A stretch of DNA of 64,000 bases, taken from Minisyncoccota bacterium (lineage in GTDB: Bacteria; Patescibacteriota; Minisyncoccia; Phycocordibacterales; PALSA-1337). Location: assembly GCA_036517115.1 (NCBI GenBank), contig DATDYB010000023.1, positions 2,839 through 66,838 on the forward strand, given 5' to 3'. The translations under genes were made by a program, and so were the position numbers. Under the pieces are notes generated by a model. The model saw only the letters and a list, made by a program, of their open reading frames with translations. It was not told the DNA's origin and made no database searches. Below are positions 8,331 through 58,792 of the stretch, piece after piece. Within the stretch, counting starts at the first letter, position 1. Every line of letters begins with the position of its first letter.

Positions 8331-8432
8331 CATACCAATCAACGAATGATGCGAATTCAACGAATGGCTACGAATGCTTCTTCCGGAATTTGTAGCCATT
8401 AGTATATTTGTACTCATTCGTATATTAGTATG
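8331..8432. repeat. about 100-nt imperfect palindromic hairpin element, copy 1 (family shared with 58699-58792)
   Basis: The left arm cataccaatcaacgaatgatgcgaattcaacgaatggctacgaat pairs with the right arm aatttgtagccattagtatatttgtactcattcgtatattagtatg. It is built from TACGAAT/ATTCGTA units. Confidence 0.6.
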
Positions 8433-8475
8433 TGATTGAATTCCCAGTCTAACTTCTCAGAGCAAAATTAGCAAG

Positions 8476-8506
8476 CAAAAACCGCTCGATAACTAGAAGC
8501 GGTTTA
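8476..8506 (-). terminator. terminator of the 8519-8896 gene
   Basis: The minus strand reads aaaccgct-tctagttatcg-agcggttt followed by ttgc. The stem accgct/agcggt is flanked by A and T runs. Confidence 0.5.
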
Positions 8507-8518
8507 TTGCAGCCTCAT

Positions 8519-8896
8519 CTATTGTATCTCCGAGATACTTGCCTCTAGTTCGGTGAAGCTTTCCATCTTCAGATCTTCGTCAATCGAACTTACTTCATCT
8601 GAAGTAGGTAGAGCTTCTGGCGTTGTTTCGACGTGCTCAGCTCCTGGCATAACTTCCCCGGTTTCAGTTTGATGTGTTACCGAGTTGATCCTCTGTCCCC
8701 AGAAATACAATGCACCGAGAACGAGTACGATGATAATAATGGTGGAGCCGACAATCGGTCCGACAGAATGTTTCTCTTGAACAGGTATCGTCTGTGTTGG
8801 TGGCGTTGCTACTGGAGGAGGAGTGACAGACGGTTGCGTAGGAACTACCTGTGCCGCGGACTGTGGAGGGATAGTTTGGTTTTGTAGTGGGTCCAT
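8519..8896 (-). CDS. hypothetical single-pass membrane protein, Pro/Thr/Gln-rich N-terminus
   Basis: 125 aa with TM segment GPIVGSTIIIIVLVLGALYFWG and an acidic C-terminus. Confidence 0.5.
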   Translation of the reverse strand: MDPLQNQTIPPQSAAQVVPTQPSVTPPPVATPPTQTIPVQEKHSVGPIVGSTIIIIVLVLGALYFWGQRINSVTHQTETGEVMPGAEHVETTPEALPTSDEVSSIDEDLKMESFTELEASISEIQ

Positions 8897-8904
8897 ATGA
8901 TTGA

Positions 8905-9558
8905 TTATTGAATAGTAGAAGGAGTAGTGGTTCCGCCATTAGTGCCCCGCTTGTCTTTGAGCGTGTCTTTGGCGCGGGCATTAATAGCTGCAATAGCATC
9001 GACGAGTGCTTTGTGTGCCTCCTTTACTTTTTGTGCTCCAACATTAAGTTTTCTTTTAACCTCAGCGATGGTTTGTTTAGGAGTGCTCGCGGTAAATGAA
9101 TCGATATTTTGGGATTTGATTGAATCGATCTCCTGTCGAGCAAGTGTGATCTTAGTCCGTGCTTCGGCGGCAAGACGCTTTGCGTCCGTAAGTACCGCTC
9201 CCTTTTCTTCCATTTTTACGATACGAGACTCAACACGCGCCGCGTTTTCTTCGATACGCTTCAGCGCTTCCTCGAGTTTTTGGATGGCGTTCCTGACTTG
9301 TATAACGATGCGCTCTTTAGCCACTTCTTGAGCTCGCGTCTTGAACTCGGCTTTTGTCGTTGAGCCGACGGCACCTTCTTTTTTCCTCTCCTCCTTAAAA
9401 TCTTCTTTGATAACTTTTGCTTTTTCTCTAACATCTTTCATTTCTTCCTTCGCGGCTTCTTTTCGTACGGCCGCCGGACGCATTTCTTGCGCGCTCCCGA
9501 TTATCGGGATGATCAAAAGGAGAGAAAGGAATGCAATAAAATTTCTTTTAGTATTCAT
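8905..9558 (-). CDS. secreted coiled-coil protein (hypothetical)
   Basis: 217 aa. The signal peptide is MNTKRNFIAFLSLLLIIPIIGSAQE, followed by Lys/Glu/Ala-rich heptad-like sequence. A TGgTATAAT box lies at 9586-9594 (minus strand). Confidence 0.55.
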   Translation of the reverse strand: MNTKRNFIAFLSLLLIIPIIGSAQEMRPAAVRKEAAKEEMKDVREKAKVIKEDFKEERKKEGAVGSTTKAEFKTRAQEVAKERIVIQVRNAIQKLEEALKRIEENAARVESRIVKMEEKGAVLTDAKRLAAEARTKITLARQEIDSIKSQNIDSFTASTPKQTIAEVKRKLNVGAQKVKEAHKALVDAIAAINARAKDTLKDKRGTNGGTTTPSTIQ

Positions 9559-9611
9559 GCAGACAGTTTAGTTGATAATGTGTCTATTATACCACTCAAA
9601 GAAATATCATC

Positions 9612-9645
9612 AAAGAAGCCCGCCAGATGAGGCGGGTTTCTTTGA
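9612..9645. terminator. hairpin terminator downstream of ppa
   Basis: gcccgcc-agatga-ggcgggt flanked by caaagaa and ttctttg. Confidence 0.5.
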
Positions 9646-9665
9646 GATTCAGCGGTTATTCGGAG

Positions 9666-10193
9666 CTACTTCGTTTCCAGACTTTTCTTGTAGAGTTTAA
9701 TACCCCGTGCGAATGCTTTTTCGGCTGCTTTTCGATCTTTAAAACCAGTGACATTCACTTCTTTTTCCTGAATTTGCTTGTAGGTTGAGTAAAAATGACG
9801 GATTTCCTTAAGTGTATGCTTATTGATATCTTTCAAATCCTGTACATCATCCCATCGAGGATCGTCTGCCGGTACACCAATGATTTTATCGTCCGGATCG
9901 CCTGAATCCACCATACCCATAAGAGCAATAGGTCGCACGCGAACCAAAATACCGGGAATAAGTGCGTAGGTTGTTAATACCACAACATCGATAGCATCTC
10001 CGTCATCCCATAAGGTTTGCGGAATAAAGCCGTAATCAAAAGGAAAATCTTGTGCAGTGTGAGCGACGCGGTCGAGCGCTATAATCCCCGTTTTTTTATC
10101 GATTTCATATTTGTTTTTTGAGCCTCGGTTGATTTCGATAATAGTGTTAATCCTCTCTGCTGTTCCTGGCTCAATGTCGTGTAACAAATTCAT
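9666..10193 (-). CDS. ppa: inorganic pyrophosphatase (family I)
   Basis: 175 aa with IEINRGSKNKYEIDKKTG, DGDAIDVVVL and MVDSGDPDDKIIGV motifs. Confidence 0.9.
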   Translation of the reverse strand: MNLLHDIEPGTAERINTIIEINRGSKNKYEIDKKTGIIALDRVAHTAQDFPFDYGFIPQTLWDDGDAIDVVVLTTYALIPGILVRVRPIALMGMVDSGDPDDKIIGVPADDPRWDDVQDLKDINKHTLKEIRHFYSTYKQIQEKEVNVTGFKDRKAAEKAFARGIKLYKKSLETK

Positions 10194-10218
10194 AATAATT
10201 AGTGGTTATGGTGTGTAA

Positions 10219-11361
10219 TTAGGATTTTTTTGCTTCCTCAACTTGCGCTACGGTGGCGCCTTTTACTGACTGGATGTCTATTTTCCACCCTGTAAGCTTA
10301 GCAGCGAGACGCACGTTCTGACCTCCTTTACCGATAGCGAGAGACTGTTGGTCTTCAGCTACTTTCACCATGGCTTTATTTTCTTCTTTATTGATTTCGA
10401 TACCTAATACTTTAGCGGGAGATAGGGAACTTGCGATGAATTTCTGAGGATCGGCAGACCATTCAATGATATCGATTTTTTCACCATGGAGTTCGCTCAT
10501 TACGGTGGTAACGCGTACACCTCGTCCGCCTACTAATGAGCCAATCGGGTCAATATGCGGATCGTTTGAGGCTACTGCGATCTTTGAACGGGAACCTGCT
10601 TCACGCGCGATTGCTTTGACTTCTACGCTACCATTACTGATCTCAGGAGCCTCTATTTTAAAGAGTGCTTCAAGAAACTTTGGATGTGAACGGGAAAGGC
10701 GAAGCATAATACCCTTAGGGCTGTCTTCCACTGCAAAAAGGTATGCGCGGATACGCTCTCCTTGACGGTAGCGTTCTCCTGGAATCTGCTCTTCGTAAGG
10801 GAGAAAACCGGTAGCACGGCCAAGATCGATGAATATATTACCCCGTTCCATCCTCTGCACCGTTCCGGTAATGATTTCACCTTGTCGTTCGCCGTATTCT
10901 CCGAGGACTGAGACTTTCTCAGCCTCACGGATCTTTTGAATAATGACTTGTTTGGCAGTTTGCGCTGCAATACGGCCGTAATTATCCTTTTGTTCCAGAG
11001 GGAACACGATCTCATCATCAAGCTTGGCGTCTTTTTTAATCTTTTTAGCGTCTTCAAGAAGAATATGGTGCTCCGGGTTATATCGAACCTTCACGTCTTC
11101 TTCAGCGACGTTCGTGATGTCCTGCTCCTCATCTTCCATGAGGATTTTTGAGCGGTCAACCACGATTTTAACCTGATAAAACTCGGTTTTTCCGGAATTT
11201 ATGTCAAAATGGGCCCGAACAATCTGGCCTTTTTTGCCGTATTCCTTTTTATATGCGGTGGCAAGGGCCATGGTAATGGCCTCAAGAACCTTCTCTTTTG
11301 GAATACCGCGCTCTTCTTCAAGCTGCTGCAGCACCGAGTTGATGACTTTAAGATCGAACAT
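10219..11361 (-). CDS. nusA: transcription termination/antitermination factor NusA
   Basis: 380 aa with an N-terminal domain, an S1 domain (GEIITGTVQRMERGNIFIDLG) and two KH domains (GSLVGGRGVRV, LAIGKGGQNVRLAAKLTGWKIDI). Confidence 0.92.
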   Translation of the reverse strand: MFDLKVINSVLQQLEEERGIPKEKVLEAITMALATAYKKEYGKKGQIVRAHFDINSGKTEFYQVKIVVDRSKILMEDEEQDITNVAEEDVKVRYNPEHHILLEDAKKIKKDAKLDDEIVFPLEQKDNYGRIAAQTAKQVIIQKIREAEKVSVLGEYGERQGEIITGTVQRMERGNIFIDLGRATGFLPYEEQIPGERYRQGERIRAYLFAVEDSPKGIMLRLSRSHPKFLEALFKIEAPEISNGSVEVKAIAREAGSRSKIAVASNDPHIDPIGSLVGGRGVRVTTVMSELHGEKIDIIEWSADPQKFIASSLSPAKVLGIEINKEENKAMVKVAEDQQSLAIGKGGQNVRLAAKLTGWKIDIQSVKGATVAQVEEAKKS

Positions 11362-11382
11362 AAGTGATTTTTTAATTTTTCT

Positions 11383-11412
11383 AAAAAAACGAGTTCGCCG
11401 CGAGGCGAACTT
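11383..11412 (-). terminator. intrinsic terminator inside the nusA leader (candidate attenuator)
   Basis: The minus strand reads aagttcgcc-tcgc-ggcgaactc followed by gttttttt, ending 21 nt before the nusA ATG and downstream of the predicted promoter. Confidence 0.6.
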
Positions 11413-11421
11413 AACAGATGT

Positions 11422-11450
11422 AATATATCAAATCTCATCTTTTCGGTCAA
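11422..11450 (-). promoter_or_regulatory. nusA promoter TTGACC-17 nt-TATATT
   Basis: The minus strand reads TTGACCgaaaagatgagatttgaTATATT. Confidence 0.5.
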
Positions 11451-11514
11451 GTGCGAACTTTATCCACACTACAGGGAACTTAGGATCAGACAATTGAAGG
11501 TATAATTGTGCAAT

Positions 11515-14500
11515 ATGCGATTTTTCTTTTCCGTATTGTTTGCAATACTGGCTCTATTTCCGTCTAATAATGTATTTGCAGCGGCGGAAACACTATTCCT
11601 AGTTGGCTTTGATGGAACGTTTCAAGATTTTTCAAAAAATGATTCGAGATACATCAATAATAATTTTTTCATTGATGATGATTTTCTTAAGGATAATGTA
11701 CTAGATGGTCGAAAGGAATATACTAAATTTGGAGAGGGTAGCTTGCGAGTGTATGGCTGGCAGGATGGAACTAAGGAGGGAAAGTTTCATGAAACAAAAA
11801 TCAGTTTTCTACCGAAAGAGGATATTGATGTGGGGACCAGCGAATTCACTATAGACTTTTGGGTCTACCCTTTTGTCGATATCACCACAGACAAGAATAC
11901 TGGCAAGTTTTTTGAACTTCTCAATACCAGAAAGAATACTTCCTCGCTGTACCCGAATTCTAATTTAACAATATGGCGAGACAAGGATGCAGGGCGGGGC
12001 AGCAACAAGCCTTACCTTTTATTTACTGAAGATAAATTCTCGGCAGACGGTACTGCCGTGGCGGAAGAGCTACTCAAGGCACAAGCAGGAGATGATGTGA
12101 TCCGAGGTCAATGGAATCATGTTGCGGTACAGAGAAAAAACACCGCGACGGATTCAAAGTTTACCGTTGCGGTGAATGGTAAGATTGGTCCTGCCACATC
12201 AAAGCCTTTGAGTTTCAAAATCCCTCCGATGAATCGGGCGATTTTCAGTAAGTTGAGCAATGTAGTGTACGGCTTCCTCGATGAGGTGCGCGTGGTAAAA
12301 GGCGAAGCCCTATGGGCAGGAGGAGAAGCCGGAAAAACATTCGATATAACCTCGATTACTTCGGCAATCACTCCCGCCATGAAAGGAAGAGCTAGACCAT
12401 TCACTCCCTCATCTAAAATCTTGCCCGAGGATGTGCCTCCTTCATTTGTCATACCATTTGATGACTCACTTGTTGCGAGTCAGGGAGGAACTGTGGCCCC
12501 GGTAGATCCAAAAGTATCTTCCCCGGCAATAGTTAAAGATGTAGACACTCAGGTGGGAAAGGGAAGCGCGTTCTTTGCGGGTGAGAAAAATGGACTGGTC
12601 TACACTGCCTCAGGAAATGAGGTGGATTTGGGTAATGGCAATTTCACCATAGACTTTTGGGTGTTACCTGAATTACTTTCATCCGGCACCGCCGGGGAAT
12701 CTCTTCAGCTGTTCTCTCTTAAAGATAGCTCGAATAAAACCTTTCTATTACAGAGGTATAACTTTACAGGGGATACTAAGACACTTCTGTTCGGACCTGT
12801 TATTGACGCATTTTCTAATCCGAAAAACGCACGTGGTGCAGATGTGAGTCCTACTGGCGTATCTCCATGGTGGCTTGATATTGAAGCGAGGCGCTGGAAT
12901 CATGTTGTAGTCCAAAAAGATGGACCGTATCTGCGCCTTATGATAAATGGTGTCGTAGGTGGTGCCGCGTATTCTGTCCCTTTCACTGGCAAAACTACAC
13001 TAACGATTGGTGGTGTGGCAGCAGCAAGTACCGTCGGAGGGAAAGTCTATCCGTTCAAGGGTTATATCGACCATTTCCGAATTACCAAAGCGGCTCTGTG
13101 GCCAGGTGTAACACGAGGAGACAAGATAGAATATCTAGCTCCGAAAGGAGGTGAACCTGTCATCATAGAGAGGCCAGTAGAGATTGACCCATATGCCAAC
13201 CGTAGTGAGGTACCCGGAAAAGAAGGCATTCCTACATTCCCGAATCTTTCTTCAACCGAAACATCAGAAGAGCGAGACCTTCCGGAAAGAGCAATTGCAC
13301 AAGAGCTGTTGATACAAAATCTGGACGGCTCTCGAGACTATACTAATTATTATGACGATAGAAGCGTCTTAGTAAAGAGCGTCTTTTGGGCAGAAAACAC
13401 CGGCGATAAAAAATTGAAGACGCTGGAGTACGATGCTTCGGGAGAATTATACAAAGAAACACATTTTGGACCAAAGGGCGCTATTGCCGACACGTATTTC
13501 TATTATTCCGCGGCAGATGGCGGTTCGTTGCACAAGGAAATCCTTCGTCGAGGAGACAAAGAGCTCTACACTCGGTTTACCCCACAGGGAAAAATTGCTT
13601 ATGCCCATGAAGTGAAGGGAGGAAAGTATGTCTATTCTAAACATATTAACTATGATCAAAAGGGAAAGGTGCAAGACGATCTCATCATATATGGGCCAGA
13701 TCAATTTGAGAAAAATGTGTATGTGGCGAGCGAACAAACTGGGCAGGTGAGGGAGATTAGAAATTATACAAAGACTCCAGTATCTGCAGATGGCGCTCCA
13801 TACGCATATACTGCAACCCTACTTGAAAACGAAAAAGTTCTTTCTAAAAAGACACTGTACGCGGACAGTAATTTTAACGTGCGAAAAATGGTGCTTTCAT
13901 CATTTGATGCGAGTGGAAAGCACCTGACTATCGAAAGAACGTTTGATTACATCAATAATCTGCAACACTATCTGGAATATCATACCAAGGGTGAAAAAAT
14001 CATCGGCAAGAAAGCATCTGAATACACTTGGAATATAAGCGACGGAGCGTACCGTTCTAAAACTACCTATGACTACAAAGGTCTTGCGGGGACATTTGAA
14101 GCTAAAAACAAAAAGATCGCGGGTAGTGGCCAGCTGCTTCATTATGTGAATGATGACGAAGCTGTCGATACCGATACCACATTTACTTATCAAACCATCG
14201 GCGGAGTAGTGAGCTGGAAAGACAAGACAACCAAGAAGTATGACAAAGATGGCAAGCTTATTAAAGTAACGGTAACGGTATTTAAGGAAAAACCCGAACC
14301 TACGGAAGATTCAATTACCGCCTATGATGGCGATTCAAACAAACTCTCTCTTACACGCTTTAATAACGGCGCGCGTATCTCTACAGAATTTTATGACAGT
14401 TTTGGAAATATTTTCTTTAAAAATAAGTACCAGAATGATGTTTCAGGTGGGTACACAGTCAAGTCATATTATGTTCTTGGTGCCAATGAGATTCCAGCGG

Positions 14501-19185: not shown

Positions 19186-19199
19186 TTTCGCAAAATTAT

Positions 19200-19532: not shown

Positions 19533-19620
19533 TAGATTACGTTCGTTTCTTGTCAGTGGGTGACGAGGTGTATACTTATTACGACGAGCGAGGATATCGC
19601 GGCTGCATGCTGATGCAGAC

Positions 19621-22182: not shown

Positions 22183-22204
22183 GGATATTCAGACATCTCT
22201 CTTT

Positions 22205-34700: not shown

Positions 34701-34806
34701 AGGACAGGGTTGTAAGAAATATGATGGAACGGGTGGTAGAGAGGATAAGACGTTAAGTCTCCCAATCCAAGTAACCAACGTCAATCCAACCTTTAAAGAA
34801 ATTTGA
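22774..34806 (+). CDS. giant secreted modular surface protein (4010 aa): TSP1-like, InlB-B-repeat-like, CARDB-like, FN3-like, Ig-like and PKD-like modules
   Basis: A single uninterrupted ORF. The signal peptide is ...RLCVYIVAVLSLFSFFFASNAVEA/YVP (alternative start ATG at 22807). It has a strongly repetitive module structure. Confidence 0.85.
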   Translation: MIYHRETITGSMGKKVRIERLCVYIVAVLSLFSFFFASNAVEAYVPGDTITHGTSHSYNNSTYSIYGSYYVGVAIHKNGSVCDQQYGNVYGSNANPPGPASISASCSQVAGPVGTTYTFKNFLLFNGSWSSTGETTYTVVAPTCTTFTYSGWGACQSDNTQTRTVTGSSPAGCTGGSPVTSQSCTFSAPACNYTYSNWGACQPNGTQTRTVNSTSPSGCAGTPATSQSCTYVAAVASAGLSLATPSSMPVPYNSAATLAVSSQNASNCNLSGGGQTWSNVTGNVGAGNVGVGNLTTDTAFSVNCTPNANTTGTPSNSLTVTVAAQVINYTISSAAGTGGTRSCTGCGTVSSGSQVSVTASPNTNYQFSSWSWSGTNNPCSSAGSTCTWNAAQSGTLTANFTAVPSFGTPSFSSVCNNQVTPNDCSTPIIDGSTVTYSGSVTNSGGAAGTWNGTVEVRDGNSGTVYTNWISGVSATVAANTTATLSGTHSNDATFGAGPWQFRFCQSGGSCSPWSGNYYFTKGYSISTTASPSAGGSIACSVGGTTVPCSNTFQSGTEVALTASTAANYQFSNWSGDCSGSSCLLTMNGNRSVTANFSSFNYRIDPPAAQTITQGKTIYVYVPTTLTGGNTEGVTLTLSNLQNGVSYTVDPVGALNPSVTRVFAITAAGNATVETRTVTITGSPLGRTTTFSLSVLAPTVSATLTARNAAGTAVTAAQTGETLNFTTSVLGTAGGTATYSGHTCGSGANLFNVSDGSFSCTYTSASNKTASITVTKQGVSATATKVISVTAPPNTLIIQSVVIDGAVITPTTGASMEMYDGTYNGIYPTEKTFTSTTGTITNTIQAPSKLNGNSFLSWSGCDSTRSRQRCDVTVANGATKTINAQYVTASYYRPNFTVSGVVVNGDKYKGTSTYVDYTINDHNVTIVGTITNSGSTEAPDQAAYVSFEYSTNGGASYTAMGAAYPAIKEQGGSTIPASFPRGAQQRVYAVLDVPPGAYTLRICVDSANSIPETNDSDNCSGGTAIVVSTPSAPPTVQSCFASFVNTNTAESNRDVRTSGNVGISGNCSTDYFQGMTVTGTAYASDLGAGVPVLDLYGWFGWRDFGTDPTNGGNGVWRDTGPVSTSAQYSVREANGACQNSSGWPSGDGIGFGPINVSAGYSNSFTYASYLGCLQNDPWQRTHVNFGTYGVPWGIYNYGVTNTFSGTYYCYVHLNSVYDVPSDTFKTPVLMRGDPKSFNLSTRAESCYSIPRGALDDDYYQESCGNSKYTDSVTFSCPGYTATPVQSTSNPLPLPNTPILKRHTLNVKSTFGTESSQGVFITQVGSAYALKTDGTLTSSVVVPMEGGNFGGTTDYSKTTERNFRVTLKAPFTHPSRGGSFIAWSGCDSLATSGDAPAGVSNNQCTIDFKYSNSGGISRTITANYFVAVPAQPIISVGPGSCGANVNISWSAAAGATTYKLHRSTNGLGGPFNQLPIGIPTTVTSVYPDSKLNATTPLSPNTEYWYQLEAVNTGGSSFSPITSGLSSKNCFDFGLTNGGNKTTVAGTNPVDNTLTASLTPEAVGATTQVVNLTMGSLPAGVTHVFLKGGVAVTSITPNDTITVRLNTTLGTTLPNTYAITITGTSPNPKIPGQNLTRQTTYNLIVTNPSNMQLSVTKSGTGTGTVKSSEATPKINCGSTCSALYTYSDQVTLIPTPDAGSAFKQWTGACSWTGSCIVNMNGNKAVDAEFTKQIASVDLKAETSDGPIIVDYDFNPKLTWSSTFVNANSCNITIDRQSNNFPKNGQPASMTAPGISTEALRQDVTFTVTCTKNTGAGGGTGTTVTDSVVVKVKVRTGDVTPVTRANSCGVIDVTYQSAGNATTYTLHRNPDASGLNQWGRIAGGGTEATGVAFGALPAVHTGLTAGTLYQYQLQAFNKVSDASSPIRSATASANCFDYTLSNSGNVGVGVTGAASASVTKTLVTAPTQAVTLAVSSIKKPDNSIVTGSGSSLSTSGLTIAIRDNNPSNPTSTSNIDVTTNNATLGTYVVTVVGSPLGKSTSFNVTVSIGQPTVTLNTTTAACGANINLSYGGGSGANSFTLYRQIDSNTSPYPQRATAPTLAGLPTIDKASDSLIAGRTYWYQLKASNGSFDAYSPRVSAVASVPCPTIDLKINDKDSDTVAAGSNAALSWQSFNAPTGSTCLASSVPISTFKGARVLTSSSPESVVVDVNTTYKIDCLAPGDYPFSDTAVVTAPVTVTCSALPTSGTAGVTEITWTAVPKGGTGAYTYSWSGTDSLTGTAISVKKTYGATSAGSKTASVSVNGLAAANCSTPVNIIAPVATADIKADASDGPITVNYGATPTISWSSEETATCSITASPGVTGFPKSGTSSAGVTSGALTADTTFNILCTPANGATNNPTNSVVVKVRPQAPDLTALPAACGGNINLTYTESNNTTGYKLHRNPYSGNVGTWGQIEGGNTGISIATLRNNRAIDVNLALGASYQYQLEAVNTNGSANSAIRSTNASEKCFDYSLSNGGNISVTAGQSVTNQVTRTLAPGVPVSASQDVTLSVGSLPNGMNAPDVTNPSFTANPFKPTNTSTLTLNTTLGKTCLPPLVSCTYLVTVTGVSAGITNKTTTFNLTVNNPSYLLTLNRSGNGSVSSSPVGVTCNTGCATTNASYLYNTSVVLTATPDSGWVVDTTNWTGCDSVTSNQGGQTFCTVKVTAAKTVAVLFTQVSANVNLKASASDGPITLAYGSGANLTWTSNHIVDNTCGITAIPSATGFPKSSLPLSHSGTSYTTGNLTVDTTFRITCTKITGAGGTDTDTVLVKVGPEPVSFNAAKGSCGSTIDLTSYSGGAGATGNAAYTLYRQLGDNPPYPFVESKAALTGGGGLRPVDSVGLTSGSTYFYQVMSTKVHLDTTSSYSYSAKKSAVASEKCFDYSLSNNGNVTIAVGGSSATAVTKTLVAGATAPVTLSVTSITAPGGTVTTGSGVTLAGSGLTVTVANNNPSNPATNPATNPSTVNVTSTTNASVGNYTVVVTGAPLGKTTSFAVTVNASAPTISFTPTPFACGGNINLFYGGGNGAARFSLFRKIDSNTSPYDHVETVTSRSALRTVDAGLIPGRTYYYQVRAWNGTNTTNEAYSVIPTSAVASEKCFDYSLSNGGNVSVTAGQSVTNTVTRTLASGVPVGASQDVTLSAVLPGTMNAPTPTFTLNPSKPTSTSNITLSTTLGTTCPPPTASCTYLITVNGSPLSKSTTFNLTVNNPSYALTITTSGTGEGSVTTSGITPAISCNRTNGTTTSGTCTGTYLHNTLVTLSASPDEGSTFDGWTGACNNTATSCTVTMSQAKYVDAKFNQQNTNISLTATTPVAYGSASSLAWSTSNMQNNKCDLDATYNGTSISGYPRKNLATSATNYSSGALTQNPVVFALTCTRVKGTAGPNTASATVGVLPAVMTPAPVSGTCGGTIALTYSGGTIATSYKLYRGTADQSPYTQPANPPYTHIRNTAPGAPADGSFTTLPATDAGLTPNTVYYYQVEAINTAGSSWSARPRSATASDNCFNYSLGTTGNVTLAVGSGGSTSITKTLIAGATAPVTLSVTSITAPGGTVTSGTTNTLTGSGMTVTISTTGNNNPGSPTNPASNPSTATITSTTAAQVGIYTIVVGGAPLGKTTSFTVDVGVAQPVVDAVTTTGANACGGKITLSYTGGEGATLYQLYRRINDDGTPYQLIQSAASLSALRTTDTELEYEKRYYYQVLASNGTKESYSARPKSALSTGECPPIVNLEIEQADGSYSGNTTSVVHGQSRMLRWTTTNASTCVAATIPNVPSGSVWGTNISILLPTGNHTTGPITGVDDDSQPPVREKVFRLTCQNSGGLATEVYDSVTVTITNIPTPDFSIVASPLTGVMNMYGPKGISSEFIITVEGQNNFTRDVVLDLELRTPSDQKENNVSFTLAPGDERLVFSEYSTGVGIKVNASNGLAGGKYNLIVTPLSDCNAQGQGCKKYDGTGGREDKTLSLPIQVTNVNPTFKEI
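27060..28900 (+). repeat. intragenic super-module unit 1 (about 1.85 kb; boundaries approximate)
   Basis: The order is FN3-like (CGANVNISW), CFDF module (Cys codon 27352), InlB-B-like, Ig-like, FN3-like, CFDY module (Cys codon 28564). Confidence 0.6.
29990..31875 (+). repeat. intragenic super-module unit 2
   Basis: Same module order, with Cys codons at 30289 and 31516. DNA similarity to unit 3 is visible by eye. Confidence 0.6.
31880..33745 (+). repeat. intragenic super-module unit 3
   Basis: Same module order, with Cys codons at 32170 and 33382. Confidence 0.6.
34780..34803 (+). other. C-terminal tail VNPTFKEI-stop (shared tail motif, copy 3)
   Basis: The last 8 codons of the 4010-aa protein. 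Confidence 0.7.
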
Positions 34807-34960
34807 TTTTCGTTCCAACCGAAAATCATGTCGAAAGATTTTTTCAGCAACGCTGAAAAAATTTTCGACTATTTTTGCCCACCGTAAAGCGCCGCTAAAA
34901 ACATGAACTTCGTTCAGTTCTCTAGCGACCAGCAAAAAAGCCCTAATCAAGGGCTTTTTT
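34803..34960 (+). repeat. about 158-nt intergenic unit, copy A (paralog of 59338-59494): conserved 5-prime hairpins plus terminal intrinsic terminator
   Basis: ttgattttcgttccaaccgaaaatcatgtcgaaagatttt... is near-identical to the start of copy B. It ends with gccct-aatca-agggc followed by tttttt (34940-34960). Confidence 0.6.
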
Positions 34961-36113: not shown

Positions 36114-37859
36114 ATGTACATTGAAGAGAAACAGCTTCGAAACTTTATTCTTGATTCAGGGCTAGTATCTCGAGCCGACTACGAGAAGGCGTCTGAAGAT
36201 GTCAAAGGTAAAAAAGATGGGGTAGGCGAGATGCTGGTATCTGAAGGAAAAATAACCGAGGATAACCTACGGCGCATGCAGGCATATGTGCTCGGCATCC
36301 CTTTTGTCGATCTCAAGGGTCAGAAAATCCCTTTTGACACGCTCTCTCTTATTCCTGAGCCCATTGCCCGAACTCACAACGTAGTCGCATTCAAAAAAAC
36401 AGACGATGCGCTTGAAGTGGCCATGCTTGATACGGACGACTTGAACGCCATCGACTTTGTTCAAAAGAAGGTACGTTTGAGAATCTTGCCTCGATTGACC
36501 GATACTGAATCAGTCAGAAGCGCCCTGCTGCAATATCAGAAAAGTCTTAAGGCGGAATTTGGCGACATCATCCAAAAAGAAGTGGAGGCGCTTAAGGCCG
36601 TGACTGACGGAAAAGGGGATGCTTCGGTGAGCGATCTTAAGAAAATCGCGGAAGATATTCCGGTGGTTCGTGTTGTCGATACACTGTTGAAGCATGCCAT
36701 ACTCCAAAACGCTTCGGATATTCACATTGAACCGATGGAAGCGGAACTTCTGGTACGGTATCGCATTGACGGACTTTTGCATGACGCTATGATTTTGCCA
36801 AAAAGTGCTGAGCCCTCGATCACCGCACGTATCAAAGTGCTCTCTAACTTAAAGCTAGATGAAAAGCGTCTTCCGCAGGACGGCCGGTTTAAAGTAGAAA
36901 TGGAAAAAGAGAAAGTTTCCTTCCGCGTGTCCATTCTCCCGACTTATTTCGGTGAGAAGACGGTGATGAGACTCCTTCGCGAAAACGCGGGCGGCTTTAC
37001 GCTTGAGGGTCTCGGTTTTCACGGCATGGGACTTGAGCGCATCCATAAAGCAAGTACGCTTTCCACGGGAATGATCTTGACCACTGGCCCGACCGGCTCG
37101 GGAAAAACGACGACGCTCTACACCATGCTCGATATTTTAAATACACCCGACGTGAACATCTCGACAGTCGAAGACCCTGTGGAGTACCAAATGCCGCGGG
37201 TCAACCAGTCACAGGTCAAGCCGGAAATAGGGTTCACTTTTTCAAGCGGTCTTCGAACACTGGTACGACAGGATCCGGATATTATCATGGTCGGTGAAAT
37301 CCGTGACAACGAAACCGCCTCACTTGCTATCAACGCTGCGCTTACCGGTCACCTCGTGCTCTCGACACTCCACACCAACTCCGCTGCTGGTGCGATACCA
37401 CGATTGCTTGATATGAAAGTTGAACCGTTTCTTCTTGTTTCCACCATTGATATCGTCATCGCTCAGCGTCTGGTGCGCAAATTGTCGGATAGTAAAGAGA
37501 AGTATTTTTTAAGCAAGAGTGAGTTTGAACAGCTACGTACGTCAGTTGATGTAGATAAAGTGCTCAATACACTCAAAGAAGAACATATTGTGGAAAAAAA
37601 TGTTGCATGGGATAAGATTCCTTTCTACAAAGCTAAAGAAGGAACGGAAGAAGGGTATAAGGGTAGGTTCGGTATCCACGAGGTACTCAAAGTAACATCA
37701 ACTATCAAAGATCTCGTAATGAAGGGGGCGACGGCTGACGAAATTGAAGCTCAGGCACGAAAAGAGGGAATGTTGACGATGCTCGAAGACGGGATCTTTA
37801 AGGCGGCTCAAGGGCTCACTACTATTGAGGAAGTACTCCGTGTTGCGACCACAGAATAA
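36114..37859 (+). CDS. pilB: type IV pilus assembly ATPase (GspE/PilB family)
   Basis: 581 aa with an N-terminal T2SSE_N-like domain, Walker A GPTGSGKTTTLY, VEDPVEY, IIMVGEIRD and LSTLHTN. Confidence 0.9.
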   Translation: MYIEEKQLRNFILDSGLVSRADYEKASEDVKGKKDGVGEMLVSEGKITEDNLRRMQAYVLGIPFVDLKGQKIPFDTLSLIPEPIARTHNVVAFKKTDDALEVAMLDTDDLNAIDFVQKKVRLRILPRLTDTESVRSALLQYQKSLKAEFGDIIQKEVEALKAVTDGKGDASVSDLKKIAEDIPVVRVVDTLLKHAILQNASDIHIEPMEAELLVRYRIDGLLHDAMILPKSAEPSITARIKVLSNLKLDEKRLPQDGRFKVEMEKEKVSFRVSILPTYFGEKTVMRLLRENAGGFTLEGLGFHGMGLERIHKASTLSTGMILTTGPTGSGKTTTLYTMLDILNTPDVNISTVEDPVEYQMPRVNQSQVKPEIGFTFSSGLRTLVRQDPDIIMVGEIRDNETASLAINAALTGHLVLSTLHTNSAAGAIPRLLDMKVEPFLLVSTIDIVIAQRLVRKLSDSKEKYFLSKSEFEQLRTSVDVDKVLNTLKEEHIVEKNVAWDKIPFYKAKEGTEEGYKGRFGIHEVLKVTSTIKDLVMKGATADEIEAQARKEGMLTMLEDGIFKAAQGLTTIEEVLRVATTE

Positions 37860-46958: not shown

Positions 46959-46964
46959 CGGCTG

Positions 46965-46973: not shown

Positions 46974-47009
46974 GCTGAATTGAAAGAAGCGAAGCGACTA
47001 TGCAATTCG

Positions 47010-47072: not shown

Positions 47073-47108
47073 ATGATTTTCTAATCGTAGAGCTCAAGAA
47101 AATCAATC

Positions 47109-47870: not shown

Positions 47871-47888
47871 TTTTTCAGCTCTGCCTTC

Positions 47889-49408: not shown

Positions 49409-49444
49409 GAAGATAGTATAAGGTATTAAGTATGAAGACGGAAA

Positions 49445-49471
49445 TAAAAAGAGCCTATTTTTAACAGGCTC
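49445..49471 (-). terminator. intrinsic terminator
   Basis: The minus strand reads gagcct-gttaaaaat-aggctc followed by tttttatttcc. Confidence 0.6.
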
Positions 49472-49477
49472 AAGATT

Positions 49478-50008: not shown

Positions 50009-50078
50009 AATGATCAATTTCTGAAGAGAATATATCAGCTTTTATATGAATATGGAAGGCTAGGCTTGAGAAGGGGGA

Positions 50079-50087
50079 TGATACAAT
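50079..50087 (+). promoter_or_regulatory. extended -10 box TGaTACAAT, 6 nt before the recJ ATG
   Basis: gaTGaTACAATaaaagcATG. Confidence 0.5.
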
Positions 50088-50093
50088 AAAAGC

Positions 50094-51818: not shown

Positions 51819-51830
51819 TATTCTATTTCC

Positions 51831-52556: not shown

Positions 52557-52565
52557 TCTAATTAA

Positions 52566-52588
52566 TAAAAAAAGACGCACCAGCGTCT
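52566..52588 (-). terminator. intrinsic terminator overlapping the stop of 52587-52889
   Basis: The minus strand reads agacgc-tggt-gcgtct followed by ttttttt. Confidence 0.55.
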
Positions 52589-52889
52589 AAGGAGTCCAAT
52601 ATTCGATGTCTTCTGTCATGCTGTTGAACCTACCCTCGTCAACGAAGTGCGGGTTGGCGAACATCATGAGGACGTAGGCACCGGCTTTAATCTGGAGTAG
52701 TCGCTGTGCCTCGGTGTCTGAAGCATTTTTGTATGGGTTGTTCCGTTCCCATTGCTCAAGCGCTTTGCCCGCCTTTTTGTAATTTTCCCGAGTCCATACG
52801 GCATGACTCGCTTCGGAGGAAATGTGTCGCCTGTACCAATCTATCCACGTTAGGAATACAGCGAGACCGATAACAAACAAAAGGGTCAT
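52587..52889 (-). CDS. hypothetical membrane protein (100 aa)
   Basis: N-terminal TM segment MTLLFVIGLAVFLTWIDWY. No domain recognised. Confidence 0.45.
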   Translation of the reverse strand: MTLLFVIGLAVFLTWIDWYRRHISSEASHAVWTRENYKKAGKALEQWERNNPYKNASDTEAQRLLQIKAGAYVLMMFANPHFVDEGRFNSMTEDIEYWTP

Positions 52890-52945
52890 AAGAATGTATT
52901 TTCTCCCATCACGGTACCAGAGGTGCTCTTCCAGAGCAAGGGGTT

Positions 52946-52954
52946 TGTTACAAT
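52946..52954 (+). promoter_or_regulatory. extended -10 box TGtTACAAT, 7 nt before the comEC ATG
   Basis: ttTGtTACAATagagcgtATG. This favours the start at 52962 rather than the GTG at 52923. Confidence 0.5.
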
Positions 52955-52961
52955 AGAGCGT

Positions 52962-54470: not shown

Positions 54471-55050
54471 AATTCTTTTCGATCACTTCCCAATTCAGAT
54501 TCGCAAAGAAGTCTTCAATGTAGCTTTTCTTTCCGGAAGGTTGATAGTCAAAGACGAATGAGTGTTCCCACATATCGAGGCCAAGAATGAGTTGGCATCC
54601 GTTTAGTTGTCCCAGATGTTGTTCGTCTACCCACGCATGAACAAGTTTTTTTACAATAGGATCGTAGTAGAGCATTGCCCAGCCGATGCCACGGGTGAGA
54701 GCAATCGACTTGAACATGGCGAGCCAGCCGTCGAATAAACCGAACTGTTCCTCGATTGCTTTTTTAAGCACACTCCCAGCGGGGAGGGGTCTTGCTCCGT
54801 TTTCTAAACTTTTAAAATAATATTCGTGATTCCGCATGCCGTTCCATTCGAAGCTGAAGCGGCGCTGTAGTTCGCCAAGTGCATACGCATTTTTTTCAGC
54901 ATCCAGTTTCATTTCGGTAATCTTTTCGAAAATTAAATTAACATGCTTCACATATCCGGAATAAAGTTTCAGATGTTCCTCGACACTTTTTTTAGAAATA
55001 CCTTTCAGTTCTGGGATATTAAATTTTTGCTCGTCGTATTTGAAGTTCAT
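54451..55050 (-). CDS. Fe/Mn-family superoxide dismutase
   Basis: The likely start is MNFKYDEQKF (ATG at 55050). EEHLKLYSGYV, WNGMRNHEYYF and LGLDMWEHSFVFDY motifs are present. Its 3-prime end overlaps the comEC 3-prime end by 20 bp (convergent). Confidence 0.85.
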   Translation of the reverse strand: MNFKYDEQKFNIPELKGISKKSVEEHLKLYSGYVKHVNLIFEKITEMKLDAEKNAYALGELQRRFSFEWNGMRNHEYYFKSLENGARPLPAGSVLKKAIEEQFGLFDGWLAMFKSIALTRGIGWAMLYYDPIVKKLVHAWVDEQHLGQLNGCQLILGLDMWEHSFVFDYQPSGKKSYIEDFFANLNWEVIEKNFIQASR

Positions 55051-55101
55051 AGATTCACGATTAATGTATATTTTTAGTATAACATTTTCTGAAGTTTTTA
55101 A

Positions 55102-55110
55102 TGCTACAAT
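55102..55110 (+). promoter_or_regulatory. extended -10 box TGcTACAAT, 6 nt before the ATG at 55117
   Basis: aaTGcTACAATtttctcATG. Confidence 0.5.
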
Positions 55111-55116
55111 TTTCTC

Positions 55117-55971
55117 ATGCAAAAAAGGGAGCGGATCAAATACGGAGTACTGGTAGGGCTTCTATTGTTTACATCTTTTGTGTGGTACGTGATCGCGCTG
55201 GAGTCGAGACAAGGGAAGCTTACGGTGACGTTTTTAGACATCGGACAGGGTGATGCGATTTTCATCGATACTCCGAGCGGTAATCAGGTGTTGGTGGACG
55301 GAGGTGCGAATAAAAAAGTGCTTTCTGAGCTTGGTAGAGTAATGCCGTTTTTCGACCGCTCTATCGATATGATAATCGCCACTCATCCCGACAGGGATCA
55401 CATCGGCGGTCTGCCGTGGGTAATGGAGAAATACGCGGTGACGAGCGTTGTGGAACCGGGGGTCAAAGGAGAATCCGCCGAATCCGTCCATTTCAATACC
55501 CTGGTTAGTGAGCGGGGTGTTAAAAAAGAGCTGGCCCGAAGAGGAGCGGTCTACGATCTGGGCGAAGGAGTAAAACTTACCATTCTCTTCCCCGACAGGG
55601 ATGTTTCGGGGCTTGAAACAAATGACGCCTCGATTGTCGCGAGGCTCACCTACGGAAACACGTCATACCTACTCACAGGGGACTCACCGCAGAAAATTGA
55701 AAACTATTTGGTGTCGCTTGATGGAGTCGGACTTAAAAGCGATGTTCTGAAAGCTGGGCATCATGGTTCCCGCACTTCAACAAGCGAAGCATTCGTGGCG
55801 GCAGTGCTGCCGTCTATTGCGGTAATTTCCGCAGGTAAAAATAATTCATACGGCCATCCTCATAAGGAAGTGCTTGGCGTACTCGAAAAATTTAAAGTAA
55901 AGATTCTTCGCACCTATGACCGCTCGAGAATTAAAATAATCTCTGACGGGACTTCTTTGAAGATAAAATAA
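55117..55971 (+). CDS. membrane-anchored ComEC-type metallo-beta-lactamase-fold protein (separate polypeptide)
   Basis: The N-terminal TM segment is YGVLVGLLLFTSFVWYVIAL. It is followed by LTVTFLDIGQGDAIFIDTPSGNQVLVDGG, IATHPDRDHIGGL, LLTGDS and AGHHGS, as in the ComEC C-terminal domain. Confidence 0.8.
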   Translation: MQKRERIKYGVLVGLLLFTSFVWYVIALESRQGKLTVTFLDIGQGDAIFIDTPSGNQVLVDGGANKKVLSELGRVMPFFDRSIDMIIATHPDRDHIGGLPWVMEKYAVTSVVEPGVKGESAESVHFNTLVSERGVKKELARRGAVYDLGEGVKLTILFPDRDVSGLETNDASIVARLTYGNTSYLLTGDSPQKIENYLVSLDGVGLKSDVLKAGHHGSRTSTSEAFVAAVLPSIAVISAGKNNSYGHPHKEVLGVLEKFKVKILRTYDRSRIKIISDGTSLKIK

Positions 55972-56006
55972 AACCCTCTTTCGAGGGATTTATAAATAAG
56001 CGCTTT

Positions 56007-56121
56007 AGAAAAAACGGCCCAGATGCGAGACGCGAGCGAGTAGTGCGACCAAGCTGTAGTTTGATACTACTGCGTGGGAGCACACGGAGCTTGCAACGAA
56101 GCAGGTGGGATTGTTTTTTCT
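56007..56121. repeat. 115-nt long imperfect palindrome bounded by AGAAAAAAC / GTTTTTTCT (probable long-stem bidirectional terminator)
   Basis: The ends are perfectly complementary. The apex hairpin is gtagt-ttgat-actac at 56056-56070. The arms pair with several internal loops. The right end overlaps the rpmB stop codon. Confidence 0.5.
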
Positions 56122-56362
56122 AAAGGAGACCGGCTTTTTTGAGAGTAGCGTAAGCCCCGTTCTTATTGATCGTTTTGATTGCTCGTGTTGAGAGAGTAAG
56201 AATGATGTGCTTTTTAAGTTCAGGAACGTAAATTTTCTTCTTCTTGAGATTAACCTGTTTTCGGACTTTTCCGGTAGGATTATACTGGGTAGCACGAGTA
56301 CGGTTGCTGTAACCGCCTCCTACAATGCTCCCTCTTTTTGTTACTGCACAGATTTTAGCCAT
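56120..56362 (-). CDS. rpmB: 50S ribosomal protein L28
   Basis: 80 aa, MAKICAVTKRGSIVGGGYSNRTRATQYNPTGKVRKQVNL... The TGaTAGCAT box ends 7 nt before the ATG. Confidence 0.85.
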   Translation of the reverse strand: MAKICAVTKRGSIVGGGYSNRTRATQYNPTGKVRKQVNLKKKKIYVPELKKHIILTLSTRAIKTINKNGAYATLKKAGLL

Positions 56363-56402
56363 GAAGGGTATGCTATCATAAGGGTAAATTTAATCAAGTT
56401 TT

Positions 56403-57020
56403 ATGGAAGTAATGTTTATTTTTTCAATCGCTATTCTTATCATGTCGGTCGTCGCCCATGAGGTTGCCCATGCGTGGAGCGCAGAGCTCTTGGGTGACCC
56501 CACGCCGCGACTCGCCGGCCGCTTAACGCTCAACCCCCTTCGACATTTGGACTTGTTCGGTTCCCTTATCGTGCCGCTCATCACTTTTTTTGCCGGCGGC
56601 ATAATTTTTGGCTGGGCCAAGCCTGTGGTCTGGAATCCCTATAACATTCGAAACGCCAGGTGGGGGGAGGGGCTCATAGCGTTCGCCGGTCCTCTCACGA
56701 ATCTTCTTATTGCATTGTTCTTCTCCCTTATCATCCGATTTGTCGCGCCTCTGTATCCGCTACCGCTCTCTTTTATCGATATCTCGCAATACATTATTCT
56801 CATCAATATCACCCTGGCGATATTCAACCTGGTACCAGTGCCCCCACTTGATGGTTCAAAAATTCTTTTTATGTTGATTCCGCCGCACTATCAGCATGTA
56901 CGAGAAATGATTGAACGCTATTCAATGGTGCTCATCTTAATTTTCATTTTCGTGCTCTGGAGGTTCATTACTCCCGTGATCCCTTGGTTGTATAAAATAT
57001 TTACAGGACTAAGTTTTTAA
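56403..57020 (+). CDS. site-2 protease family (peptidase M50) membrane protein
   Basis: HEVAHAW (HExxH), LNPLRHLD and NLVPVPPLDGSKIL motifs. Confidence 0.8.
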   Translation: MEVMFIFSIAILIMSVVAHEVAHAWSAELLGDPTPRLAGRLTLNPLRHLDLFGSLIVPLITFFAGGIIFGWAKPVVWNPYNIRNARWGEGLIAFAGPLTNLLIALFFSLIIRFVAPLYPLPLSFIDISQYIILINITLAIFNLVPVPPLDGSKILFMLIPPHYQHVREMIERYSMVLILIFIFVLWRFITPVIPWLYKIFTGLSF

Positions 57021-58121
57021 CTTTTCCGCCTCGCACACTTTGTATGATGTGTTTTCTGTGACAATGCGAATTTTTCCGACAAAGGTGTTCATGAGTTTGT
57101 CGTAGCCCAAGAATGTGTTAAATACTAATCGCAATTTTCCTGCTGTAGCTAAATGATGGGGAGCTTCTTTGATAAGTCGTTCGCTTGCTTCAGACGATGT
57201 TTTGATGCCTTGATGGAAGGGGGGATTGGAAATGATTAAATCATATTTTTCATCAATATCTGAAAACACATCAGAGGGAATGATTCGAACGTTGGAAACC
57301 TTGTTCGCTTCCATGGTGAGACGTGCTGATTCGAGTGAAAGCGCGTTCACATCGGATAGATGAATCACACTCTCCGGTGATATTTTCTTAAGATACATAC
57401 CAATAACCCCAGAACCACAAGCGATATCAAGTAGTGTGATTTTTGTATGAAGGTCTATGTGAGGTATTTTGTCAGAGATGGACGTGTCTTGCGTATCCTG
57501 CAAGGTGAGCGATTCAAGCAATAATTTTGTTCCTGCGTCGAGCTTACCCAGGCTGAACACACCGGGTAGATTGCAGACCGTGAAGGAGACTTCGCCAATC
57601 ATCGCTTCGTATCGACTTATAAATTCCTCAGGTTGTTTGCTGATCTCTGTTTTTTTCTCTGCCTCAAACCACACACAGTGCCGTGCCGCGTCGTTCGCAG
57701 TAATTGGACCAATCAATCTTTCGATATCTTTCTTGGCGCTCCTGATACCCCCATCGTTCTCTCCGACGACGACAACTTTTCCACCGTGTGCCGTATTTAA
57801 TGATGCAAGCGTCAGCACATATTCAATAAGCGGTTTGCTTTTAGGTAGGTAGACGATCGTGGTGTCATGAAGGGACGATGAAGTATGCCAATGGTTGAAA
57901 ACGGTAGTTACATTTTTGTCTTCAGCAGATGCGGTCTGTACTCTTTTGTAATCAGCGTAATCGAAATAGAAGAGGGTGAGGGTGCTTTCAGGGAGTTTTT
58001 CTTTAAGTGCCACACCAACTTCCTCATCGGGACAGTTTAAAACAAGGAGGTTGCTCCCTGTGATTTTTTCGATATTTCTGATCACCAGCTGTGATGGTTT
58101 GCTTAGTTCACGTGATTCCAT
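57009..58121 (-). CDS. class I SAM-dependent rRNA methyltransferase (RsmC/RlmG-like)
   Basis: 370 aa in a two-lobed arrangement. The C-terminal lobe has LLDIACGSGVIG and IISNPPFHQG. Confidence 0.75.
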   Translation of the reverse strand: MESRELSKPSQLVIRNIEKITGSNLLVLNCPDEEVGVALKEKLPESTLTLFYFDYADYKRVQTASAEDKNVTTVFNHWHTSSSLHDTTIVYLPKSKPLIEYVLTLASLNTAHGGKVVVVGENDGGIRSAKKDIERLIGPITANDAARHCVWFEAEKKTEISKQPEEFISRYEAMIGEVSFTVCNLPGVFSLGKLDAGTKLLLESLTLQDTQDTSISDKIPHIDLHTKITLLDIACGSGVIGMYLKKISPESVIHLSDVNALSLESARLTMEANKVSNVRIIPSDVFSDIDEKYDLIISNPPFHQGIKTSSEASERLIKEAPHHLATAGKLRLVFNTFLGYDKLMNTFVGKIRIVTENTSYKVCEAEKLKT

Positions 58122-58284
58122 ATGGACTAGCCTAGCATAATTTGCGTTTTTTTAAAGTTTGTATTACTGTACATTCATAGCTTTTTGACTAAAGCTTTTA
58201 TTAATCACAAGGGTAAGTATGAGTAATCTCAAGGCCAACTCGGCCGGAAGATGAAGAACTTCAAACTTCCCGTTATTAAAAAGA

Positions 58285-58698
58285 ATGCCCACCATCAATC
58301 AGTTAGTGCGAAGAAATAGAAAGAAATTGTACCGCAAGCCAAAAGCGGTGGCGTTAATGCGTGGTTTTAATACCATCAAGAACCGTCCTCGTTTTTACCC
58401 ATCTCCTTTCAAGCGAGGAGTATGTATCAAGGTGACGACCAAAACGCCGAAGAAGCCGAACTCAGCTATCCGAAAGATCGCCCGCGTTCGTTTGACGAAT
58501 GGTATGGAGGTTACCGCCTACGTGCCCGGCATCGGACACAACCTACAGGAGCACTCAGTAGTACTTCTTCGAGGTGGCCGTGTGAAGGACGTCGGTATTC
58601 GATACACCATCGTTCGAGGCGTGCTCGACGCCGGTGGGGTAGAGAAACGTATGAAAGGTCGCAGCCAATACGGAGCTAAGAGGCCTAAAAAGGCTTAG
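58285..58698 (+). CDS. rpsL: 30S ribosomal protein S12
   Basis: MPTINQLVR..., [18 protein letters not shown] and [19 protein letters not shown]. Confidence 0.95.
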
Positions 58699-58792
58699 AT
58701 ACCAATATACTAATTAGTGCCAATATACGAATGAATACGAATCGGGATTTGCAGCCATTAGTAGATTTGTATCATTTGTAGATTGGTATATT
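58699..58792 (+). repeat. hairpin element copy 2 (family shared with 8331-8432) filling the rpsL-rpsG spacer
   Basis: The ends ataccaat / attggtat pair. The inner stem tacgaatgaatacgaat / atttgtatcatttgta has G-U pairs valid only on the plus strand. The 3-prime 45 nt are about 80 percent identical to the tig-proximal arm of copy 1. The terminal TGgTATATT lies 7 nt before the rpsG ATG. Confidence 0.6.

Follow-up and report, generated by a model that had tools for sequence, protein, structure and literature searches.

Two elements of a family of palindromic repeats in the candidate phyla radiation (CPR)

The DNA analysed here, hereafter the window, is a 64,000-nt stretch of contig DATDYB010000023.1 from a Minisyncoccota bacterium. 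It contains two imperfect palindromes of about 100 nt, one directly upstream of the trigger factor gene tig (copy 1) and the other in the gap between the ribosomal protein genes rpsL and rpsG (copy 2). The proteins encoded by the flanking genes are identical to the NCBI entries HEY4511751.1 (trigger factor), HEY4511784.1 (S12) and HEY4511785.1 (S7). Both palindromes had been described in an earlier analysis of the letters alone (the sequence-only reading), and direct inspection confirmed the places and the strings given there. The coordinates of all features are presented in Table 1.

The two copies share a common plan, in which five units of the type (A)TACNAAT (the R arm) are followed by a short centre and five units of the type ATTNGTA(T) (the F arm), in the order R-then-F. 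They align with a mean column identity of 77% across approximately 100 nt, and as palindromes they align equally well in the +/+ orientation, where positions 8384-8412 and 58743-58771 are 90% identical. Both fold far better than shuffled sequences (z = -5.5 for copy 1 and -3.3 for copy 2, with 0 of 200 shuffles as good). A degenerate arm pattern of 25-26 nt displayed three matches in the window, compared to an expectation of 0.00, and neither sequence comparison nor the pattern scan identified a third copy in the 64 kb. Copy 2 fills the intergenic gap, beginning at the rpsL stop codon and leaving 10 nt to the rpsG ATG, and copy 1 stops 8-11 nt short of the tig ATG. The inverted ends probably reach a few bases beyond the coordinates given earlier, to about 8322 on the tig side, and this outer extension resembles the GTATGTTTATCTT ends of related Paceibacteria-type copies (loci L018, L023 and L033). 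At 77% identity, the two window copies themselves are old. Both elements are 100% identical across all contigs of the same population, which thus provide no polymorphism information.

Table 1. Positions of the two elements, their parts and the flanking genes in the window.
Feature	Position	Strand	Description
Copy 1 R arm	8332-8375		Units ATACCAAT, CAACGAAT, ATGCGAAT, CAACGAAT, CTACGAAT, (A)TACNAAT type, spacing 8-10 nt; fits the consensus over its whole length
Copy 1 centre	8376-8387		12 nt, GCTTCTTCCGGA
Copy 1 F arm	8388-8431		Units ATTTGTAG, ATTAGTAT, ATTTGTAC, ATTCGTAT, ATTAGTAT, ATTNGTA(T) type
Copy 1 probable outer extension toward tig	~8321/8322-8331	minus	Reads GTATGTTTATACTTT-ATG; putative boundary
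Extended -10-like box TGGTATGTT	8337->8329	minus	Outermost unit of copy 1; 8 nt before tig ATG (8320)
tig	7262-8320	minus	Domains Trigger_N and Trigger_C without a PPIase domain; downstream of copy 1
rpsL	58285-58698	plus	Upstream of copy 2
Copy 2 R arm	58699-58742		Units ATACCAAT, ATACTAAT, GTGCCAAT, ATACGAAT, ATACGAAT; begins right after the rpsL stop codon (58696-58698)
Copy 2 centre	58743-58746		4 nt, CGGG
Copy 2 F arm	58747-58789		Units ATTTGCAG, ATTAGTAG, ATTTGTAT, ATTTGTAG, ATTGGTAT
Extended -10-like box TGGTATATT	58784-58792	plus	Outermost unit of copy 2; 7 nt before rpsG ATG (58800)
rpsG	58800-59270	plus	Downstream of copy 2; 101-nt rpsL-rpsG gap filled by copy 2

The repeat family, its GxxExxY gene and the orthologous sites

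For the family scan, a degenerate pattern derived from three of the four window arms was run on a 596-Gb genome collection, for which a rough estimate predicts only a handful of matches by chance. The pattern matched more than 119 loci, nearly all of them in metagenome-assembled genomes (MAGs) of many CPR classes, which confirms that the repeat family described earlier is real and extends to many more copies. The matches listed include Saccharibacteria, many groups of Parcubacteria/Paceibacteria, Magasanikbacteria and Roizmanbacteria, as well as a few labelled Bacteroidota/Pedobacter or 'Gammaproteobacteria'. In 906 kb of the listed loci, 162 clusters of at least four units were counted, with a unit spacing of 8, 9 or 10 nt. 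The arms were arranged R-then-F in 98 cases and F-then-R in 6. Almost all clusters were intergenic (157 of 162), and 114 were located between co-directional genes. The distance from the outer end to the neighbouring codon was usually 2-10 nt on the side of the upstream stop and 7-10 nt on the side of the downstream start.

Each arm of the family is a row of 4-5 copies of the 8-nt unit ATTNGTAT, placed 8-10 nt apart, and the two arms are inverted such that the ATTNGTAT ends face outward. The consensus of 35 members reads aagATACcAAT ATACgAAT ..aTAC.AAT gATACgAAT ga.TACgAAT - ~12 nt - tATTcGTA ttcATT.GTAt. ATT.GTAtc ATTcGTAT ATTgGTAT., and both window copies follow this 5+5-unit consensus end to end. 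Their identity to copies from Saccharibacteria and Parcubacteria is 72-78%, which makes them as close to these as to each other. Near-identical gene-less copies were observed at three unrelated loci of JACRHW01 and at no fewer than five loci of CAZYWN01. Downstream of 96 family members, genes of 117 different Pfam families were recorded, among them MacB/FtsX, M16 peptidases, amidase, T2SSE, glycosyltransferases, transporters, NDK, Hsp70 and some ribosomal proteins. Thus, the association with ribosome-associated genes proposed in the sequence-only reading is not a property of the family, and a translation-related regulon was ruled out.

Some elements are composite. Two elements of the ATACNAAT type (L024 2184-2424 and L078 4230-4450) have a second palindrome of other units in the centre, built from TCCGAAAT/ATTTCGGA and ATCCTAAAT/ATTTAGGAT, respectively. 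Palindrome families thus appear to nest in one another's centres, and the centre seems to be a favoured site of entry. Related units, CATTAGTTCATTGGTAT, form rows in Pedobacter (L048 7070-7677, L040, L041 and L068), with two such rows about 580 nt apart and in the same orientation in L048. Searches of these four loci with CPR GxxExxY queries, a protein family described below, gave no match.

At several loci, the R and F arms are separated by 380-420 nt rather than about 12 nt and enclose a single open reading frame (ORF) of about 125 amino acids (aa) in either orientation. The ORF encodes a GxxExxY protein (TIGR04256; PF13366, PDDEXK_3), and the site that it occupies in these full-length members corresponds to the centre of copy 1. 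The first eight cases came from loci that had been selected by the arm pattern. In a reverse test, 80 metagenome loci were picked by GxxExxY protein similarity alone, of which 73 had at least 100 nt on both sides of the gene. Three or more R units to the left and three or more F units to the right were present in 64 of the 73, one arm in eight and no arm in one, showing that the embedding of this sub-family between the same arms is nearly obligate. None of 350 pseudo-genes placed elsewhere in the same loci was framed by arms. In a Saccharibacteria MAG, the arms of the gene-bearing element L065 share 83-91% identity with five gene-less copies from that MAG, as compared to a mean of 73% and a maximum of 84% for 83 copies from other genomes. 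The units that frame more distant GxxExxY genes are variants, namely TTCGTA (L010), ATTAGCGAT (L016) and ATTNGTTAA (L206), and this pairing of divergent proteins with divergent units is a lead for a possibly matched specificity.

The GxxExxY proteins have the invariant residues E32, D64 and E74-x-K76. The AlphaFold model is confident (pLDDT, the predicted local distance difference test, 91.3) and displays an alpha-alpha-beta-beta-beta-alpha-beta-beta core, and its best, although weak, structural neighbours are Cas4, the archaeal splicing endonuclease, Hjc and I-Bth0305I (E ~0.4). The predicted structure fits a minimal PD-(D/E)XK nuclease. No real match was obtained to the sequences of solved structures; a search against plasmids gave one distant match in Treponema, and a search against phages gave none. 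The function of the family has been listed as 'Unknown' (PMC3424549). Contigs no longer than 0.5-1.5 kb carry very many of the GxxExxY homologues (P0246-P0364), which would be expected from flanking repeats that break metagenome assemblies.

The element is absent from the orthologous gaps of relatives. Between rpsL and rpsG, L140 has 5 nt and L141 has 32 nt, and their S7 proteins are 88% and 81% identical, respectively. In L139, with an S7 identity of 98%, the gap is of similar length and the flanking coding DNA nearly identical, and the palindrome inside is unrelated. Upstream of tig, the syntenic relatives L137 and L138 (55%) contain a terminator and a TTGCCA-17-TAGACT promoter but no element, and the 45-nt gap of L136 (64%) contains no element either. 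In L135 (94%) the sequence upstream of tig is unrelated, and homology to the window begins only at codon 4. No unit cluster was seen in L137, L138 and L140, together about 55 kb of relatives, that were scanned or inspected. These absences identify both window copies as lineage-specific insertions.

Several features of these junctions were recorded in addition. The palindrome of L139 (237-348) consists of 110 nt of TAAGTT/AACTTA units with a fold of -29.5 kcal/mol; among all loci examined, TAAGTT units were found only in L139 and in one unrelated tandem run. Homology to L135 sets in exactly at TATACCAAT, and right at the edge of the element the start codon and first three codons of tig differ from those of L135 (ATG AAC CTA as compared to GTG AGT), as if the insertion had rebuilt the 5' end of the gene. 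On the tig strand (8303-8339), the last unit of copy 1, ATTGGTAT, and codons 3-6 of tig, ATATACCAAT, form a small inverted repeat around the start codon. The two-domain architecture of the trigger factor, lacking the FKBP/PPIase domain, is the same in all close homologues. The str operon is broken in the window, with rpsG and fusA 1.48 kb apart (59271-60751) and separated by a UDG-family gene and a doubtful ORF of 166 aa, which has no Pfam match and is called differently in sister assemblies. In L140, rpsL, rpsG and fusA are separated by 5 and 9 nt. An element is also present between rpsL and rpsG in L098; an insertion hotspot at this junction was considered and dropped, because one coincidence is expected with about 160 elements and fewer than 1000 gaps per genome.

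Interpretation of the arrays and competing explanations

An A+U-rich stem-loop could act on the RNA as a terminator, an RNase III site or a stabiliser of mRNA that uncouples the flanking genes. Such a role would agree with the folding of both copies relative to shuffles and with the 114 of 162 elements between co-directional genes. The sequence-only reading had pointed to G-U pairs as a sign of function in the RNA, and this argument holds for copy 2, where the sense strand folds better than the antisense strand (-26.9 vs -17.8 kcal/mol), but fails for copy 1, where the strand antisense to tig is favoured (-38.0 vs -33.7 kcal/mol). A comparison of the two strands in 72 elements with co-directional neighbours gave the better fold to the sense strand 29 times and to the antisense strand 41 times. 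At the free N position, 29% of the paired units within elements carry complementary bases, compared to 33% in a position-matched control between elements, and the covariation that would have indicated a conserved hairpin was thus not observed. Complementarity of the arms is 71% within and 67% between elements (p ~1e-4), a small excess in favour of pairing. Taken together, the N-position and arm-complementarity results imply that two inverted rows of one consensus unit account for the palindrome almost completely. Neither copy contains a G+C-rich stem or a T run, and a canonical terminator-like hairpin that follows the preceding gene (8488-8472) is separate from copy 1, which lies downstream of it; the proposed terminator role was therefore abandoned. 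Rfam gave no match at gathering thresholds and only chance-level miRNA hairpins (E 0.6-0.8) in E-value mode, and a search for tRNA and tmRNA genes found none. Strand-specific RNA structure was ruled out by the sense/antisense and N-position tests, and a hairpin acting in the RNA is in our view very unlikely, also considering that elements in the order F-then-R would fold equally well and yet are rare. The lack of covariation and the orientation bias of 98 to 6, which is irrelevant to a hairpin, argue instead for sequence-specific recognition of double-stranded DNA, and the selected feature looks like arrays of DNA binding sites.

For copy 2, the sequence-only reading had also raised the S7 translational operator, which in E. 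coli is located in the rpsL-rpsG spacer. The position and the presence of a hairpin are all that speak for it. The short spacers of L140 and L141, the unrelated sequence in the relative with 98% identical S7, and the occurrence of the same element before tig and genes of more than 100 other families leave this explanation with next to no probability, and an S7 operator or other conserved regulator was rejected on these grounds.

The outermost units were correctly described earlier as TGGTAT(G/A)TT boxes 7-8 nt ahead of the tig and rpsG starts. In 8 of the 45 genes of the window, a TGnTANNNT motif terminates 6-8 nt ahead of the start codon; elsewhere upstream it is almost absent, and Shine-Dalgarno cores are rare at the gene starts of the window. 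Genes with the motif at this distance include those at 36114, 50094, 51831, 55117, 57009-58121 (minus) and 59993. As judged from the sequence, this placement is the signature of putative extended -10 promoters for leaderless mRNAs, and it suggests that such mRNAs are widespread in this Paceibacterota lineage. Since the pattern recurs window-wide at the same spacing, a leaderless-mRNA promoter at the end of the element is plausible, and the -10-like box noted earlier is probably meaningful. Following an insertion that split the tight rpsL-rpsG coupling of relatives, rpsG may now be expressed from the end of copy 2. In the window, an insertion of this kind probably keeps the downstream gene expressed or newly drives it.

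It could be argued that the element is a dedicated promoter, or terminator-plus-promoter, cassette in which the upstream repeats are UP-like or activator sites. The terminal TGGTATnTT at the leaderless spacing of other window genes is consistent with this, as is the finding that an arm seldom ends less than 7 nt from a start codon but often does so from a stop codon. However, each element also has an identical end pointing at the 3' terminus of the upstream gene, in which direction a promoter would be antisense, many ends in the family are not -10-like (for example GCATCGAT), and elements also adjoin the 3' ends of convergent genes. The same arms moreover enclose a nuclease gene, and relatives have the ordinary promoter before tig and no element. 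We give little credence to such a cassette. The putative promoter supply is best seen as a by-product that makes an insertion tolerable, not as the reason why the element exists, because of the two properties of the ends mentioned above and because spacings in the family peak at 7-10 nt, counted from the end of the ATTNGTA heptamer, which is slightly less than leaderless starts would call for.

We consider it likely that both window copies belong, as gene-less (non-autonomous) members, to a family of intergenic inverted arrays that is widespread in CPR and carries GxxExxY in its full-length form. Based on the sequence comparisons, the element is best read as non-autonomous and selfish-looking, similar to miniature inverted-repeat transposable elements (MITEs) and to REPINs, the paired form of repetitive extragenic palindromic (REP) sequences, rather than as a ribosome-specific control element. 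The units would be double-stranded-DNA binding sites for the GxxExxY protein, which would copy or move its own unit. It might do so in trans on the gene-less copies, which are about ten-fold more numerous, as REP-associated tyrosine transposases (RAYT) do for REPINs and transposases for MITEs. Alternatively, it might cut empty palindromes, with the gene homing into the centre. Only insertions into tiny intergenic gaps would survive. As a more tentative proposal, the GxxExxY proteins (TIGR04256/PF13366) could be the site-specific nucleases of an undescribed selfish element, in which a gene framed by inverted rows of 8-nt sites spawns REPIN-analogous gene-less palindromes all over the intergenic space of CPR genomes and some Bacteroidota. 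Its sub-families would have matching protein and unit specificities, and the palindromes would reshape the junctions of operons, with start codons and leaderless promoters among the parts affected.

Several observations weigh against the interpretation as a mobile family. No target-site duplication was seen beside the near-identical copies in two genomes, the exact ends of which are uncertain, and no clean pair of empty and filled sites was found, so that mobility is inferred only from the patchy presence of the element and the near-identical copies. No GxxExxY gene is present in the 64-kb window; the same metagenome (Ga0209541/Ga0209542) contains many GxxExxY-bearing units. The open-access literature reports no nuclease, binding or transposition activity for any GxxExxY protein; it contains no account of these repeats, of MITE/REP elements in CPR bacteria or of GxxExxY/PF13366 function, and none of leaderless promoters in Patescibacteria. 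The excess of arm complementarity within elements makes some selection for pairing possible. As for the promoter, the peak at 7-10 nt between arm end and start codon and the many GCATCGAT ends indicate that promoter supply is not general. Finally, the preservation of the consensus at about 75% identity over very distant CPR classes could also signal a host function.

The last point leads to the alternative that the arrays are architectural or regulatory sites of the host, which bind a conserved CPR protein, possibly GxxExxY as a host factor, to insulate, terminate or organise transcription units, and which are kept by selection. The conserved consensus, the strict outward orientation of the units, their exact placement between stop and start codons and the free base without covariation, as for protein sites, would all be accounted for. 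Set against this are the absence of elements from the orthologous gaps of close and syntenic relatives, including the 55 kb without a cluster, the near-identical copies at unrelated loci of one genome and the functionally unrelated downstream genes. In addition, the partner gene encodes a nuclease, occurs in multiple copies and lies within the sites themselves. On balance, we regard host sites as unlikely.

Two other kinds of repeats were observed in the window. A block of about 40 nt, TTGATTTTCGTTCC(A/T)ACCGAAAATCATGTCG(A/C)AAGATTT with the inner hairpin GATTTTCG/CGAAAATC, is present at 34801-34845 and 59336-59380 with 95% identity; one copy overlaps the stop codon of a 4010-aa ORF, the other is located 66 nt after rpsG, and the similarity ends outside the block. 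Positions 11506-34806 contain three very large ORFs (2559, 853 and 4010 aa) with internal repeats of 650-1900 nt period and a common C-terminal block of about 24 nt just ahead of their stop codons (families D1-D5 and D10).

Significance and comparison with known systems

CPR genomes are tiny, tightly packed and usually thought to be repeat-poor. A pervasive palindrome wedged into junctions of 5-30 nt, including the core rpsL-rpsG junction, would mean that these genomes are still being remodelled. The repeat may also explain assembly breaks in CPR MAGs, in which GxxExxY genes are found on contigs of 0.5-1.5 kb. For GxxExxY, annotated thousands of times with no known role, a concrete and testable function is proposed, and, next to REPIN/RAYT and independent of it, the family would be a second system of protein and palindrome in which the persistence of such elements can be studied. 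In annotation, we suggest that these elements be masked and not be read as riboswitches, operators or terminators.

Among known systems, the E. coli S7 autoregulatory site between rpsL and rpsG of the str operon has only its position in common with copy 2. The element differs from it in not being conserved in relatives, in occurring also before unrelated genes and in showing no signal of selection at the RNA level. The PD-(D/E)XK homing endonucleases, such as I-Ssp6803I and I-Bth0305I, are similar in that a small nuclease is encoded inside the sequence that it may target, and the constant location of the GxxExxY gene at the centre of the palindrome is what would be expected from homing into empty copies. 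However, GxxExxY is not located in an intron or intein, its structural similarity to I-Bth0305I is weak (E ~0.4), and the protein would act on a repeated intergenic palindrome, not on a unique gene.

The Correia elements of Neisseria are bacterial MITEs with outward promoters. Like these, the family consists of intergenic elements of about 100 nt with inverted ends that can supply -10 boxes, and a transcribed hairpin could be processed. Some features of MITEs are found here: the elements are short and non-coding, have terminal inverted repeats and are present in multiple recently spread copies with presence/absence differences between relatives. A full-length relative with the same arms exists, and it encodes an uncharacterised predicted PD-(D/E)XK nuclease and not a known transposase. 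Unlike in Correia-type MITEs, no TA or other target duplication was seen, and the ends are arrays of units.

Proteobacterial REP/REPIN elements and their RAYT transposases were reportedly described by Nunvar in 2010 and by Bertels and Rainey in 2011. RAYT is an IS200/IS605-like Y1 HUH transposase, and REP is a single hairpin with a GTAG head. In both systems, short palindromes occur in many intergenic copies, the presumed mobiliser gene is itself flanked by the same inverted repeats, copies with the gene are far fewer than those without, and the greatest similarity is found among copies of one genome. The partner here is instead a multi-copy PD-(D/E)XK GxxExxY protein of about 125 aa, each arm is made up of 4-5 tandem 8-nt units, and the hosts are CPR bacteria; neither a Y1 partner nor a REP hairpin head was found. 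Thus, we conclude that the element works most like REPIN/RAYT and the promoter-bearing MITEs of the Correia type, while being a member of neither.

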